Part shown: positions 18,949-28,100 of the stretch, in pieces
Position numbering within the stretch: the first letter of the stretch is position 1
Layout of the letters: every line of letters begins with the position of its first letter
Assembly (NCBI RefSeq): GCF_000008645.1
Contig: NC_000916.1
Coordinates: 1,680,001-1,712,000 of the forward strand
Source of the DNA: Methanothermobacter thermautotrophicus str. Delta H
GTDB lineage: Archaea > Methanobacteriota > Methanobacteria > Methanobacteriales > Methanothermobacteraceae
Reading direction: 5' to 3'
Length of the DNA: 32,000 nucleotides
Notes under the pieces: generated by a model
The model's input: only the letters and a program-made list of their open reading frames with translations
The model's database searches: none
What the model was told of the DNA's origin: nothing
Position numbers and translations under genes: made by a program

Positions 18949-19005
18949 GGTGATCCCTCAAAGCTGAAGACAGAGACCCCCATGCATATTGATAATGTGG
19001 TTTTT

Positions 19006-19497
19006 ATGAAGAAGGTTCTTGACGCGTCTGCCTTCATAAATGGATACGTGCCAGAGGGAAGGGAAAATTACACTGTAAGATCGGTCACAGAGGAGATCAG
19101 GGATTTCAGGTCAATGATGATACTGGAGGATGCACTGAGGGAAGGTAGACTCAAAATAACCGAACCCGACCCTGAGAGCATGAAGGTGGTGGAGGACGCC
19201 ATCAGCGAATCAGGAGACATAATGAGACTTTCCCCCACAGACATGGAGGTCATAGGCCTTGCAGTTTCCCTGAGGGGGAAGGATGACGTCACTGTGATAA
19301 CAGACGACTACACAATACAGAACACACTGAAAATCCTGGGTATAGGGTTCAGGAGTGTTCTAACATCAGGTATAAGGGACACCTACAGCTGGAGACGGGT
19401 ATGCACCGGGTGCCGGAGGGTGTACCCCCTGGACTATGAATTTGAGGAATGTGAGATATGCGGTTCAAGAATAGTCCGCAAGAGGCACAGAAACTGA
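19006..19497 (+). CDS. nob1: Nob1-type endonuclease (PIN domain + C-terminal zinc ribbon)
   Basis: It contains [13 protein letters not shown] (PIN acidic motif), [16 protein letters not shown], and CTGC...CEICG. The track ORF starts at 18982. ATG 19006 gives the N-terminus typical of this family. Confidence 0.8.
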
Positions 19498-19513
19498 AAC
19501 TTCAGGTGATTTC

Positions 19514-20539
19514 ATGAATATAGGAGTGGTTGTTCACGGACCACACATTGTTGATTCTGGCTACGCAGCACAGCTCATAGAACTCCTTAGAAAATACGGT
19601 CATGTGAAGGCAAGACTGGGAGGCACCATGGGAAGAACAGCTGTCTACGACGCCCACCTTGAGGATATCATAGACATCTCAGAGAAGAGACTTCCCAGTG
19701 AATCGGTTGACCTCTGTGCAGAGGAGGGCCATGACCTTGTTGTACTCATGAACTATGGAAAATCCCGCATAACCGGCCACGGCTTCGGCTACAAGGTATT
19801 CCAGAGGTCGGAGAAGAAACCGCCCATGGTCCAGATAGAAAGACCTGGAGAGCCCGATGGAAGTGTTGTACCCTGGAGGAGGGAGGTACTCCCATTCGCA
19901 GAAAAGCTTGCAGATGAACTTGGACTTGAACTGGTGGACCCTGAGGAGATATGCCGTGAAATATTCCATGGAGAGCCATGCAACGAACAGGAACCCGATA
20001 GCAGGGAATACCGCAGACTCGTGGGTGTCTCAGAGAACGAGAACATCTTTGTCAACGGTATAGTGGTGGGGACATCAACCTCAGATGACGTCACACTGGT
20101 TGCAGAGAACGGCATAATCACAGATATAATCGGGGGCCGCATAAAGAAACACGGCGTCGAAAAGCTTGGAAGGGTTAACCTAAGGGACGCGGTGGTGAAG
20201 ACAGGACTCCTCAGACGATCCGATGTAAAGCCAAGAAAGGTGAAGCTAAGAGAAAATAATAAGGAGAGATTCAGGGTCTCCTTCCTCAACCACGCAGCAG
20301 AGGACATCTACAGCCTTCATGACGCTGACCTGGTTGTCACCGTGGGAGACGACACGACCCTTGTGGCAGCAGACATACTCTACAGGTTTGACGTTCCGAT
20401 CATTGGCATCACAGATGGAGACATTGACAGGGTTGTCAGGAATGGTTTCAAATGCTCAGGTTCCATCATAATAGAATTTGAGGGAGGATGGGATGATATA
20501 GTGGGTGAGAGATCTACAGGAGCTATTCAGGGGCAGTGA
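19514..20539 (+). CDS. DUF2117-like methanogen protein, apparently truncated by a frameshift near its 3' end
   Basis: 341-aa ORF with an AGGTGAT SD motif, starting 16 nt after nob1. The family call is from memory of [10 protein letters not shown]...-type proteins. See 20502-20633 for the out-of-frame continuation. Confidence 0.55.
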
Positions 20540-20633
20540 CACAATTGAAGTGGAGGACTTGGAAACTTTTAAAAAGGATCTGCTACAGATTATAGATAAT
20601 ACAGGTGCAGAATACACTGTGAGATACACCTAA
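20502..20633 (+). other. Coding-like +1-frame continuation of the DUF2117 gene (frameshifted tail or overlapping mini-ORF)
   Basis: The +1 frame is open from 20502 and reads [43 protein letters not shown]. It ends 15 nt before the mmp2 start. The frames can be joined across the GAGAGA run at 20507-20512. Confidence 0.45.
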
Positions 20634-20648
20634 ACGATACAAAGAGGT

Positions 20649-25724: not shown

Positions 25725-25725
25725 T

Positions 25726-26283
25726 ATGGGGATACAGATAGAATGCTATGACCCCCGCGGGGCAGCGGTGTACGACATAATCACCAGGCAGGTTCTCCAG
25801 GACCTGCAGCTTTCAAGGGCCATAGATGACCTGAGGATATGGGTTGATCCAAGGGAACCGGTTTTCATAATAGCTGTTAAGACACAGAAAACATCCGAAC
25901 CCATTCACCTTGAGGATATGGCTGAAATGGAGGTTGATAAGGCCACGGGTTCCATTCATCTAAGGATAAAGGATGAGACCTACCTCCCACAGCTACTTGA
26001 AAGGTTATGGGAAACACAGGGAAGGGGCAGGGTCCGCCAGCCCTCGAGGTTTGAGGTGATAATTGAGGACCCGGTCTCGGGTATCACAGGAATGACGGTC
26101 CATGACCCCTCACTCAACCTCAAGAAGAGGGTATACGATGCAATCTTCAGGATAATACCCGAGGGATTCCGGGTTATAAGGGATCTATCTGAGGACAACC
26201 TGATAGCCCTCGTATGCACCGATGAGGTACTCAGGGATGAATGGGTCCTGAAGGCGAAGGAGATAATTGACGGGATGAGGTGA
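25726..26283 (+). CDS. mmp17: Methanogenesis marker protein 17
   Basis: About 185 aa from ATG 25726, which has GGTGAGGG 5-6 nt upstream and lies 1 nt after the mmp15 stop. The N-terminus MGIQIECYDPRGAAVYDIITRQVLQDL, the size and the position fit Mmp17. Confidence 0.75.
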   Translation: MGIQIECYDPRGAAVYDIITRQVLQDLQLSRAIDDLRIWVDPREPVFIIAVKTQKTSEPIHLEDMAEMEVDKATGSIHLRIKDETYLPQLLERLWETQGRGRVRQPSRFEVIIEDPVSGITGMTVHDPSLNLKKRVYDAIFRIIPEGFRVIRDLSEDNLIALVCTDEVLRDEWVLKAKEIIDGMR

Positions 26284-26287
26284 AGAA

Positions 26288-27154
26288 ATGCCAGATCAGA
26301 GACAGACAAGATTTGCACACATAACAAAGGCCCACCCATGCTTTAACGAGAAACTGCATGACAGGGTTGGAAGGGTACATGTTCCAATAGCACCCCGCTG
26401 CAACATTCACTGTAAATTCTGCACCAGGGACATAAATGAATGTGAAAGACGGCCTGGGGTTACAGGAAGGCTCATGACAGCTGATGATGCCATAAAACAC
26501 GTGGAAAAGGTTAAGGAGGAGATGCCAATAAGTGTAATTGGTGTGGCCGGTCCAGGAGACGCTCTGGCCAATGAGGAGACATTCGAGTTCTTCAAAAAGG
26601 CCAGCAAGAAATTCCCGGACCTCCTTAAATGTATGAGCACCAACGGACTTCTCCTACCGGACAGGGCAGATGAACTCGCAGAACTTGGGATTAACACCGT
26701 CACCGTCACCGTGAACGCAGTGGACCCCGAGATAGGGGAGAAGATATACTCCTTCGTCGTCTACAAGGATAAGGTCTACCATGGAAGGGAGGCATTTGAA
26801 GTTCTCTCAAGGAACCAGCTGGAGGGTATTGAGAAGCTCGCTGAGAGGGGGATAATTGTAAAGGTCAACAGCGTCCTCATACCCGGACTCAACGATGAAC
26901 ACATAGTTGACATTGCAAGGGAGGTTAAAAAGAGGGGAGCGTCCCTCATGAACATAATACCACTCATCCCCATGGGCGAGATGAAGGACTACCCGAGACC
27001 AACATGTGAACAGATCGAGAGGGTCCGCAACGAAGTTGAAAAGATAATACCAGTGTTCAGGGCATGTACACAGTGCAGGGCAGACGCCTACGGAATCCCC
27101 GGGAAGAAAGAAGCTGATAAACACCTTGACATGACACCAGCAAGCCACTACTGA
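26288..27154 (+). CDS. nifB: Radical-SAM carbide/Fe-S cluster synthase NifB (minimal, stand-alone SAM domain form)
   Basis: 288 aa. It contains HPCFNEK, the radical-SAM motif CNIHCKFC, GPGDALAN, and the NifB-specific C-terminal CTQCRADAYG. Its GAGGTGA SD motif lies inside the end of mmp17, and the gene starts 4 nt after mmp17. Confidence 0.9.
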   Translation: MPDQRQTRFAHITKAHPCFNEKLHDRVGRVHVPIAPRCNIHCKFCTRDINECERRPGVTGRLMTADDAIKHVEKVKEEMPISVIGVAGPGDALANEETFEFFKKASKKFPDLLKCMSTNGLLLPDRADELAELGINTVTVTVNAVDPEIGEKIYSFVVYKDKVYHGREAFEVLSRNQLEGIEKLAERGIIVKVNSVLIPGLNDEHIVDIAREVKKRGASLMNIIPLIPMGEMKDYPRPTCEQIERVRNEVEKIIPVFRACTQCRADAYGIPGKKEADKHLDMTPASHY

Positions 27155-27164
27155 CCATGGATAG

Positions 27165-28100
27165 ATGAACATGAAGACCATTGAATGGAAGGATGGAGAG
27201 CTGGTCCTCATCGACCAGCGCAAGCTACCTGACTCCCTCGAGTACTTCCGCTGCAGGGACTACAGGGACGTTATATATGCCATAAAGAACATGGTTGTCA
27301 GGGGTGCACCGGCAATAGGGGTTACAGCAGCATTCGGGGTTGCAATGGCGGAACTCGCCGGTGAGGATGTTGAGGTGGCAGCAGAGGAAATAAAGGCATC
27401 TAGACCAACAGCAGTGAACCTGTTCTGGGCCGTTGACCGTGTGATGAAATCAGAATCTCCCCTGGATGAGGCCATCACAATGTACATGGAGGACATGGAG
27501 ACCAACAGGGCAATAGGAAGACACGGCGCTGGGCTCATAGAGGATGGTGACACGGTTTTAACCCACTGCAATGCAGGGGCCCTTGCCTGCGTTGACTACG
27601 GAACAGCCCTTGGGGTTATAAGGGCCGCATGGGATGATGGGAAAAGGTTAACAGTCATATGTGATGAAACAAGGCCAGTCGGCCAGGGTGCAAGGCTCAG
27701 TGTCTGGGAGATGCAGCAGGAGGGCATACCCGTTAAGCTGATAACGGATGTTGCAGCAGGCTACCTGATGCAGACTGGCATGATCGATAAGGTGATAATA
27801 GGCGCCGACCGTATCGCAGAGGGGGGCGTGGCAAATAAGATAGGCTCCCTCATGGTTGCCCTGGCAGCAAAACGTTTCAATGTCCCCTTCTATGTTGCAG
27901 CACCCATGAGCACATTTGACACGGAAAACTCCATCTATGACATCGAAATCGAGGAGCGGGATCCTGCAGAGGTTCTATATTATGGTGGATGCAGGATAGC
28001 GCCGCAGGATACAGAGGCCATTAACCCTGCATTTGATATCGTACCATCGGACCTCATATCAGGTATTATAACTGAGAAGGGTATCCTTGACCCCCTCTAG
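27165..28100 (+). CDS. mtnA: MtnA-type (eIF-2B alpha/beta/delta-related) 5-(methylthio/deoxy)ribose-1-phosphate isomerase
   Basis: 311 aa. It contains IEWKDGELVLIDQRKLP, VRGAPAIGVTAAFG, THCNAGALA and GADRIA..G.VANKIG. Confidence 0.8.
   Translation: MNMKTIEWKDGELVLIDQRKLPDSLEYFRCRDYRDVIYAIKNMVVRGAPAIGVTAAFGVAMAELAGEDVEVAAEEIKASRPTAVNLFWAVDRVMKSESPLDEAITMYMEDMETNRAIGRHGAGLIEDGDTVLTHCNAGALACVDYGTALGVIRAAWDDGKRLTVICDETRPVGQGARLSVWEMQQEGIPVKLITDVAAGYLMQTGMIDKVIIGADRIAEGGVANKIGSLMVALAAKRFNVPFYVAAPMSTFDTENSIYDIEIEERDPAEVLYYGGCRIAPQDTEAINPAFDIVPSDLISGIITEKGILDPL

Follow-up and report, generated by a model that had tools for sequence, protein, structure and literature searches.

A probable methyl-coenzyme M reductase activation gene cluster in Methanothermobacter thermautotrophicus, with a conserved six-gene core and a likely electron-transfer activase

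We analysed a stretch of 32,000 nucleotides (nt) from Methanothermobacter thermautotrophicus str. Delta H (NC_000916.1, positions 1,680,001 to 1,712,000 of the forward strand; the window, with position 1 its first letter) and in it a run of genes that we read as probably the Methanobacteriales form of the gene cluster for the activation of methyl-coenzyme M reductase (MCR). Eleven consecutive open reading frames (ORFs) on the + strand fill positions 18982-28100 and are the longest co-directional run of the window (Table 1). All eleven lie where an original prediction had placed them, and every one of its family assignments was verified by profile and/or PDB searches; the product that it had called "DUF2111-like" is of the right family, but the qualifier can be dropped given a true Pfam DUF2111 match. 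The cluster is flanked upstream by MoaB (- strand) and downstream by Trm5b (- strand) and Dph5. It includes the genes of Mmp2, Mmp5, Mmp6 and Mmp15, universally methanogen-associated proteins, all on the same strand. The genes of McrC, Mmp7 and A2, the partners of Mmp3 and Mmp17 in the known activation complex, were not found in the window, nor were those of A2 and Mmp7 within 10 kb in CP064324.1, another assembly of the species, which is 99.96% identical to window positions 16290-32000 over the aligned span; the Mmp5 protein is 100% identical to that of the species.

Table 1. Features of the cluster and its surroundings in the window, with the spacing to the following gene in related loci (negative values are overlaps)
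Feature	Position	Strand	Evidence and remarks	Junction to the following gene in relatives
Conserved structured element	18557..18668	+	In the MoaB-PIN gap, ~300 nt upstream of the cluster; nhmmer and covariance model	
PIN domain and zinc ribbon endonuclease, Nob1-like	18982..19497	+	Pfam PIN_6 (PF17146) 4e-17; NF009145 above cutoff	Median 140 nt; never 25 nt or less
DUF2117	19514..20633	+	Pfam DUF2117 4e-129; frameshifted, ORF as read stops at 20539, ~40 codons continue in another frame to 20633	Median 28 nt
Mmp2	20655..21641	+	TIGR03267 574 bits; AIRS and AIRS_C domains; TTG start at 20655 as in sister assemblies	Median 31 nt
Mmp3	21706..23247	+	TIGR03268 786 bits; chain J of 8S7V/8S7X/9H1L, E 7e-104	Median -29 nt
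Mmp6 (DUF2102)	23222..23668	+	26-nt overlap with Mmp3	Median -17 nt
DUF2111	23679..24050	+	Pfam 1.5e-36	Median -4 nt
Mmp5 (DUF2112)	24047..24493	+	TTG start overlapping the DUF2111 stop (TTGA)	Median -8 nt
Mmp15	24486..25724	+	BcrAD_BadFG (PF01869) 7e-81; TIGR03286 776 bits; TIGR00241 369 bits	Median 0 nt
Mmp17	25726..26283	+	TIGR03291 268 bits; 8S7V chain G, E 1.7e-21	Median 26 nt (68 loci); at least 100 nt in 14 of 68; 4 nt in the window
NifB	26288..27154	+	7BI7/7JMA/7JMB, 657 bits over residues 1-288; crystallised MtNifB	Median 95 nt; 25 nt or less in only 3 of 65
MtnA	27171..28100	+	TIGR00512 373 bits against a cutoff of 279; start as in sister assemblies, ATG at 27165 also possible	
T6 tract	28126..28131	+	In the 34-nt convergent MtnA-Trm5b spacer; first sense-strand run of five or more T after 19005	

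In the solved activation complex, McrC, Mmp7, Mmp17, Mmp3 and A2 are assembled around three [8Fe-9S-C]-like clusters (Ramirez-Amador et al., Nature 2025, PMC12176620). Mmp3 of the window corresponds to chain J of 8S7V and Mmp17 to chain G, both scoring above the cutoffs of NCBIfam equivalog models, and the following gene encodes the NifB of structure 7BI7; that the cluster joins two structural subunits of the activator to uncharacterised Mmp proteins and a NifB, as had been predicted, was thus borne out. This NifB is of a minimal form of 288 amino acids (aa), with the radical S-adenosylmethionine (SAM) motif CxxxCxxC at C38/C42/C45 and without the NifX-like C-terminal domain of the bacterial architecture, which is not needed in archaeal NifB. 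As this domain is absent, its match to TIGR01290 is confined to model positions 8-283 of 441 and scores 308 bits, below the cutoff of 344; to judge from its sequence, the protein is a radical SAM synthase of the [8Fe-9S-C] cluster (NifB-co/L-cluster). It has been proposed that NifB probably makes the clusters of the activation complex (PMC12176620).

Mmp15 has two parts, a domain of residues 1-146 at the N-terminus and, after it, an ASKHA ATPase of the HgdC/BcrAD type. Its relatives in the PDB are activators of 2-hydroxyacyl-CoA dehydratases, ATPase subunits of benzoyl-CoA reductases and the activase chain E of 7YYL ("DCCP:DCCP-R complex"), and its residues C273 and C313 align with C127 and C166 of 1HUX (HgdC), the ligands of the [4Fe-4S] cluster that bridges the subunits. 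We consider Mmp15 likely to be an ATP-driven electron-transfer activase of the HgdC/BcrAD type. With the HgdC-HgdAB, BcrAD-BcrBC and DCCP-R-DCCP systems Mmp15 shares the ATPase family of its C-terminal domain, both cluster-ligand cysteines and a location beside, or in fusion with, small cysteine-bearing partners; it differs from them in that Mmp15-N, Mmp5 and Mmp6 are without significant sequence or fold similarity to the acceptors HgdAB, BcrBC and DCCP. In the DCCP system the cluster that is reduced is an [8Fe-9S] double cubane, whose chemistry would be close to that of the clusters in the activation complex.

Further conserved cysteines are found in the N-terminal domain of Mmp15 (C9, C82 and C85, invariant even among distant homologs), in Mmp6 (C45 in 8/8 distant homologs and C87 in 7/8) and in Mmp5, which has a CxxC at C96 and C99 of which only C99 is broadly conserved among distant homologs. 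The AlphaFold2 (AF2) model of Mmp5 (predicted local distance difference test, pLDDT, 85) has a generic flavodoxin-like alpha/beta fold, and a fold search with it against the PDB gave no match below E 0.04. Searches of PDB sequences with the Mmp5 and Mmp15-N profiles returned nothing beyond the ATPase domain. Compared with each other by hhalign, these two profiles align at their CxxC motifs with E 1e-3 and 21% probability from shallow alignments, and with E 0.013 and 3% from diverse ones; among the other proteins of the cluster profile-profile comparison detected no paralogy. Natural fusion proteins were found of Mmp6 with Mmp5 (P0195 and P0201, 259-299 aa) and of Mmp5 with Mmp15 (P0206, 581 aa), and these fusions suggest that Mmp6, Mmp5 and Mmp15 act together.

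The extent of the conserved unit was examined in the best 80 loci anchored on Mmp5, all from Methanobacteriaceae, with junction medians calculated over 60-80 loci. Wherever the contig was long enough, the order PIN-DUF2117-Mmp2-Mmp3-Mmp6-DUF2111-Mmp5-Mmp15-Mmp17-NifB-MtnA was kept, in Methanothermobacter and in Methanobacterium. Mmp5, Mmp6 and Mmp15 are contiguous with Mmp3 and Mmp17 on one strand, an arrangement kept with overlapping junctions in 73-80 loci. Overlapping medians are confined to the interval from Mmp3 to Mmp17 (Table 1), which delimits a conserved, translationally coupled unit of six genes: Mmp3-Mmp6-DUF2111-Mmp5-Mmp15-Mmp17. The claim that all eleven genes form a single functional unit is not supported by this evidence, as only the six-gene core keeps its overlapping junctions throughout the family and the outermost junctions have medians of 140 and 95 nt. 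The spacing in relatives between PIN and DUF2117 and between NifB and MtnA would usually leave room for promoters of their own, and the tight packing of all eleven genes is a feature of Methanothermobacter. The rearranged loci agree with this delimitation: Methanobrevibacter has the cluster without DUF2111; in L085 (Methanobrevibacter cuticularis, 11675-19200) a 7.5-kb insertion splits Mmp15 from Mmp17, with NifB still following Mmp17; and in L075 only Mmp5-Mmp15-Mmp17-NifB remain together, the upstream half lying elsewhere.

Outside the family, a metagenomic relative carries Mmp3-Mmp6-Mmp5-Mmp15-Mmp17-Mmp7 with neither DUF2111 nor NifB at the locus, and a distant genome of 3 Mb (L089) has Mmp5-Mmp15-Mmp6 together, near a radical SAM gene that is not NifB. 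Every informative locus beyond Methanobacteriales has Mmp5 next to Mmp15. A survey of neighbourhoods therefore supports the prediction in part: the order is conserved in Methanobacteriaceae, but no linkage of DUF2111, NifB, PIN or DUF2117 to the Mmp genes was found in the outside-family loci sampled. In one further locus (L090, 118-1563), Mmp6 and a canonical Mmp5 are separated by an Mmp5 paralog of 205 aa that has an insertion and is extended at its C-terminus; it takes the position that DUF2111 occupies in Methanothermobacter, and many of the divergent representatives of Mmp5 belong to its clade.

Two published clusters resemble the one described here. In M. marburgensis further Mmp genes form a cluster (MTBMA_c04360-c04410, followed by nifB) and are presumably required to activate F430 physiologically (PMC12176620). 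This is the same genus, with the Mmp block directly before nifB as in the window. The account is a single sentence, in which DUF2111, DUF2117, Nob1, Mmp2, MtnA, the junctions and an upstream element are unmentioned; its six locus tags are probably the counterparts of the six coupled core genes. The second is the "MCR activation operon" of Methanosarcina acetivorans, composed of A2, Mmp5, Mmp6, Mmp17, Mmp7, Mmp3 and Mmp15, for which reverse transcription PCR products over every junction indicated one transcript; expression was low and constitutive, about 40-fold below that of mcr, and no gene could be deleted (bioRxiv 10.64898/2026.03.18.712670). Mmp3, Mmp5, Mmp6, Mmp15 and Mmp17 are grouped there as they are in the window. 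The Methanosarcina operon differs in having A2 and Mmp7 and in being without Mmp2, DUF2111, NifB, DUF2117, PIN and MtnA. In M. maripaludis the Mmp genes are dispersed (PMC12176620).

Taken together, we think it likely that this region is the MCR activation gene cluster in the form that it has in Methanobacteriales. Mmp6, Mmp5 and Mmp15 would be an electron injector in it, NifB the supplier of clusters, and the outer genes hitchhikers. The purified activation complex needs Ti(III) citrate, its authors invoke extra Mmp proteins, and FeSIII, the outermost cluster, lies at the Mmp7/Mmp17 surface (PMC12176620). The family of Mmp15, the fusions, the surface position of FeSIII and the need for Ti(III) make an electron injector that feeds FeSIII the most economical reading. 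Mmp6, Mmp5 and Mmp15 would form one physical module, with the dimer of Mmp15 holding a bridging [4Fe-4S] cluster and ATP hydrolysis driving a low-potential electron. This electron would pass through additional cysteine-ligated sites on the N-terminal domain of Mmp15, on Mmp5 and on Mmp6, enter the outermost of the [8Fe-9S-C]-like clusters, which is exposed at the surface where Mmp7 meets Mmp17, and then reach F430. NifB would supply the carbide clusters, and Mmp2, a member of the PurM family, may be an ATP-dependent helper. PIN/Nob1 and MtnA would be housekeeping genes that, the genome being compact, lie close beside the cluster, MtnA plausibly recycling radical SAM by-products, and DUF2111 may be a small ligand-binding accessory that this lineage alone recruited. 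Mmp15 has been raised elsewhere as a possible transient ATPase partner (bioRxiv 10.64898/2026.03.18.712670).

Several observations weigh against this interpretation. The isolated complex with Ti(III) citrate activates MCR without Mmp15, and Mmp2, Mmp5, Mmp6 and Mmp15 did not co-purify with McrC in M. maripaludis (PMC12176620); moreover, A2 is itself a true ATPase (bioRxiv 10.64898/2026.03.18.712670). Neither Mmp15-N nor Mmp5 gave a significant profile or fold match to the HgdAB, BcrBC or DCCP acceptors, the signals of acceptor type being weak (Foldseek probability 0.41 to 7yyl_A, hhalign E 1e-3 and 1e-2, Pfam CGGC 0.02). The unrelated flanks PyrE, MoaB, Trm5b and Dph5 are equally syntenic in the same best 80 loci, so that adjacency inside Methanobacteriaceae says little about function, and the sampling across orders comprises about four informative loci and the literature. 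Internal promoters are candidates as well, for example in the 64-nt Mmp2-Mmp3 spacer, and a search for published transcript data for Methanothermobacter found none.

According to the alternative that survives best, the cluster is a cofactor assembly line: NifB would make the [8Fe-9S-C] clusters, Mmp2, Mmp5, Mmp6, Mmp15 and the DUF proteins would carry and mature them and insert them into McrC and Mmp7, and Mmp15 would have the maturation role that NifH has towards NifEN/NifDK. The close joining of NifB to Mmp17, with which it stays in the broken clusters, suits this idea, and the absence of a NifX-like carrier domain from NifB makes a separate carrier plausible. One member of the PurM family, to which Mmp2 belongs, is the maturation enzyme HypE, and a cluster in passage could be bound by the conserved cysteines of Mmp6, Mmp5 and the N-terminal domain of Mmp15. 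There is also a precedent: the Fe protein of nitrogenase is an ATPase that transfers electrons and has a part in the maturation of the cofactor as well. The nitrogenase cofactor pathway (NifB to NifEN to NifDK, with NifH) has the same NifB, cluster chemistry and an ATPase partner; it differs in that the cluster here has no NifEN, NifX or NafY homologs, that the recipients McrC and Mmp7 are encoded elsewhere, and that the clusters of the activation complex are thought to be an electron wire and not a catalytic site. No carrier of NifX, NafY or NifEN type was detected in any family or structure search of the cluster proteins. The closest relatives of Mmp15 are electron-injecting activases, not insertases, and these hallmarks make electron delivery a better fit than assembly for Mmp15, Mmp5 and Mmp6. 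Conserved cysteines are absent from DUF2111, whose gene belongs to a biotin block in other genomes; NifB is outside the Methanosarcina operon and, in the loci sampled beyond Methanobacteriales, has no Mmp gene next to it. The original prediction had favoured this cofactor reading; NifB as cluster supplier fits, but for Mmp15, Mmp5 and Mmp6 it is not favoured, and as a whole we consider it unlikely. More doubtful still is a combination of the two ideas, in which the six-gene core and NifB would be a supply-and-charge system, the Mmp6/Mmp5/Mmp15 module, as a so far unrecognised second ATPase of the HgdC type with cysteine-ligated acceptor sites of its own, both helping to load clusters into McrC and Mmp7 and injecting low-potential electrons into the outermost one in the manner of the Fe protein, and a conserved structured RNA upstream of the cluster controlling the block in Methanobacteriaceae.

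The position of NifB could also be incidental, the protein serving nitrogenase and its adjacency to the Mmp genes being inherited synteny in a compact genome. M. thermautotrophicus is a diazotroph, and the flanking genes mentioned above are just as syntenic. Tight packing of co-directional genes is normal for this compact genome, as in the unrelated - strand run of GlyRS, Dcd (dCTP deaminase), an ORF without assigned function, TrmJ and TfrB (thiol:fumarate reductase subunit) at 2568-8206, where the junctions are ~6-40 nt. The gap between Mmp17 and NifB reaches at least 100 nt in 14 of the 68 loci, NifB lies elsewhere in the Methanosarcina genome, and the Mmp genes of M. maripaludis are scattered. 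Against this stand the activation complex itself, which contains L-cluster-like cofactors, and the persistence of the Mmp17-NifB pair through two independent rearrangements (L075 and L085). The GAGGTGA Shine-Dalgarno (SD) motif of NifB is, moreover, located within Mmp17. NifB is universal in methanogens, and in M. acetivorans it could not be deleted without complementation, for which the NifB of a methanogen without nitrogenase sufficed (2023 report). We regard an incidental NifB as very unlikely.

The extent of the transcriptional unit in M. thermautotrophicus was judged from the junctions and signals of the window. Junctions were computed with the start codons chosen by gene callers in sister assemblies (Mmp3 21706, Mmp15 24486, Mmp17 25726), and with these the predicted junction lengths were reproduced. 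The exception is the 109-nt gap between DUF2117 and Mmp2, which is not real: the last ~40 codons of DUF2117 have been put out of frame by two deletions of 1 nt each, after 20511 and after 20518. The stretch at 20502-20633, which had been taken for an out-of-frame tail, encodes the conserved C-terminus of this protein and continues its reading frame without a break in 66 of 69 related loci. Neither deletion is present in any of six M. thermautotrophicus assemblies (CP064324.1 and five independent read-archive assemblies), in which DUF2117 has 373 aa and its stop lies 21 nt before the TTG of Mmp2, and in an alignment to the nearest species (L007) the window is 2 nt short within DUF2117. An identity look-up found no record of the exact truncated protein of 341 aa, consistent with a frameshift peculiar to the present record; an error of sequencing, or a variant in the source record, is the probable cause. 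The window further differs from CP064324.1 by single-base substitutions at 20515, 20602 and 27744 and, in Mmp15 at 25391-25394, by a 1-nt insertion and a compensating 1-nt deletion that alter a codon or two.

SD-like motifs with proper spacing precede seven of the ten downstream genes; they were predicted to lie often inside the preceding gene, and this is so for four. The predicted T6 tract at 28126-28131 is present, a T7 tract is also found downstream of MtnA, and the T6 is a candidate archaeal oligo-T terminator of the unit. No run of five or more T occurs on the sense strand at 19006-28125, which is weak evidence because base composition predicts only about two such tracts. The junctions, the SD motifs and the missing sense-strand oligo-T tracts are compatible with co-transcription in M. 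thermautotrophicus. A scan for sigma-70 promoters and hairpin terminators was discarded, as it is not applicable in archaea and its counts did not exceed those of shuffled sequence.

The genes outside the core are mostly of recognisable families. The best PDB match of the PIN protein is 2LCQ (E 2e-27, full length), followed by eukaryotic NOB1 covering the PIN domain; four cysteines form a CxxC...CxxC at residues 141-160, and a second possible in-frame ATG lies at 19006. The Nob1 family is the nuclease of 16S rRNA 3'-end maturation, and the protein is probably functionally unrelated to MCR. DUF2117 gave a weak, sub-threshold match to the NAD-kinase N-domain, and among the matches listed its homologs are from Methanobacteriales alone. 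Mmp2 falls in the PurM/AIRS superfamily, with ThiL, SelD, PurL/M and HypE as relatives in a PDB search; a GAGGTG SD motif stands 5 nt before its TTG, and GTG at 20649 is a possible other start. MtnA, of the S-methyl-5-thioribose-1-phosphate isomerase type (related to eIF-2B), is probably a salvage enzyme for SAM by-products. For isomerases of this type, recycling of 5'-deoxyadenosine from radical SAM enzymes has been proposed in M. jannaschii, as cited in PMC6079011, and such recycling would supply a generic reason for the adjacency of MtnA and NifB. In L089 (7924-8923, - strand) a MtnA homolog of ~50% identity lies ~1 kb upstream of Mmp5-Mmp15-Mmp6 on the opposite strand, split into two ORFs by a frameshift or an assembly error. 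This neighbour, the single strand with junctions of at most 64 nt after correction of the frameshift, the lack of internal oligo-T tracts and the order kept in two genera would speak for all eleven genes, Nob1-like PIN, DUF2117 and MtnA included, as one system dedicated to MCR activation, but we find this the least probable of the explanations considered, given an rRNA nuclease as its first member, outer junctions that in relatives are usually of ~100 nt or more and almost never coupled, an upstream half that lies elsewhere in L075, the absence of PIN, DUF2117 and MtnA from the Methanosarcina operon and the equal packing of unrelated genes.

DUF2111 is translationally coupled on both sides in Methanobacteriaceae and has no conserved cysteines; in the alignment H20, R39, E41, Y50, E56 and D98 are invariant. 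Its AF2 model (pLDDT 87) matched many PAS, GAF and Cache domains in Foldseek with probability ~1 but template-modelling (TM) scores of only ~0.5 and E-values of 3e-3 to 2e-2, and a profile search gave no family match to these domains at sequence level. On its model DUF2111 may be a stand-alone PAS/GAF/Cache-like ligand-binding domain. Neither in Ca. Methanosuratincola nor in Methanoculleus is the gene linked to Mmp genes. In all 80 Methanomicrobiales-type loci examined (L100-L179) it belongs to an array of Archease, RtcB, a protein without assigned family, DUF2111, BirA, BioY, ECF and pyruvate carboxylase, and none of the 80 has an Mmp gene within 6 kb of it. In one locus (L006, 9429-17285) DUF2111 lies directly upstream of the biotin ligase BirA with a 5-nt junction, and the 179-aa protein upstream of DUF2111 in this type of block has a weak match to the N-terminal domain of biotin protein ligase (E 2e-3). 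There are hints here of a biotin-related role in Methanomicrobiales-type genomes.

The gap between MoaB and the PIN gene had been described as a non-coding region of 562 bp; the length is correct, but the gap is not empty, as it contains a conserved structured element. The MoaB-PIN spacer is long in relatives too (median 518 nt). The element has a 9-bp outer helix, GGGTAGGG/CCCTACCC, around ~70 nt with an invariant GAGGCGGT motif. An nhmmer search found 14 copies in 13 loci, Methanobrevibacter included, and a covariance model gave 60 matches on the + strand, all within the MoaB-PIN gap and none elsewhere. The loci are L007, L009-L012, L018, L020, L024, L025, L027, L031, L069, L085 and ~45 further ones, with two identical copies 867 nt apart in L024. 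All nine pairs of the helix show compensatory changes, and 94.6% of cells are paired against 80.8% in shuffles, none of 500 shuffles reaching this value; with the partners slid, pairing drops to 54-69%. These pairing figures are to be read with the caveat that the large alignment was fitted to the covariance model. No open frame runs through the element, which has stops in all six frames, and the whole window gave no Rfam match at gathering thresholds.

Other candidates in this gap were rejected. Rfam matches to SCARNA3, the histone stem-loop and SAM-II are at chance level (searched to E 10) and not at the element; an inner hairpin of the element, ATTGGA...TCCAAT, has no covariation, shows contradicting changes and lacks its 3' half in L024; and a small hydrophobic ORF at 18853-18948 has no conserved counterpart even in the closest sister species. 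Many relatives have a canonical B recognition element (BRE) and TATA box ~45 nt upstream of the 5' arm and a run of five or six T after the 3' arm. A second BRE/TATA-like motif, TTTATAAA at 18678-18685 (+) followed by AAAGTTTT, keeps its position downstream of the element across genera; if TTTATAAA is the PIN promoter, it would give a leader of ~270-300 nt with four T5 runs. The element is a candidate for a stand-alone small RNA or for a 5' regulatory element of the downstream genes, and it is an independent small lead that may be new.

The cluster and the adjacency of nifB have already been published and are not a new discovery; the additions made here are the limits of the six-gene core, the evidence from fusions and cysteines for a module of Mmp6, Mmp5 and Mmp15, the fold and context of DUF2111, the DUF2117 frameshift and the upstream element. 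For further work, the unit worth study is the six-gene core and not the eleven genes, and Mmp6, Mmp5 and Mmp15 are best treated as a single module, with Mmp15 as a likely Fe-S ATPase that injects electrons. For MCR activation, Nob1 and MtnA probably need no attention, and DUF2111 would be a lineage-specific ligand-binding add-on. The core bears on how methanogens reduce F430 to Ni(I) physiologically, a step for which the solved complex relies on an artificial reductant.

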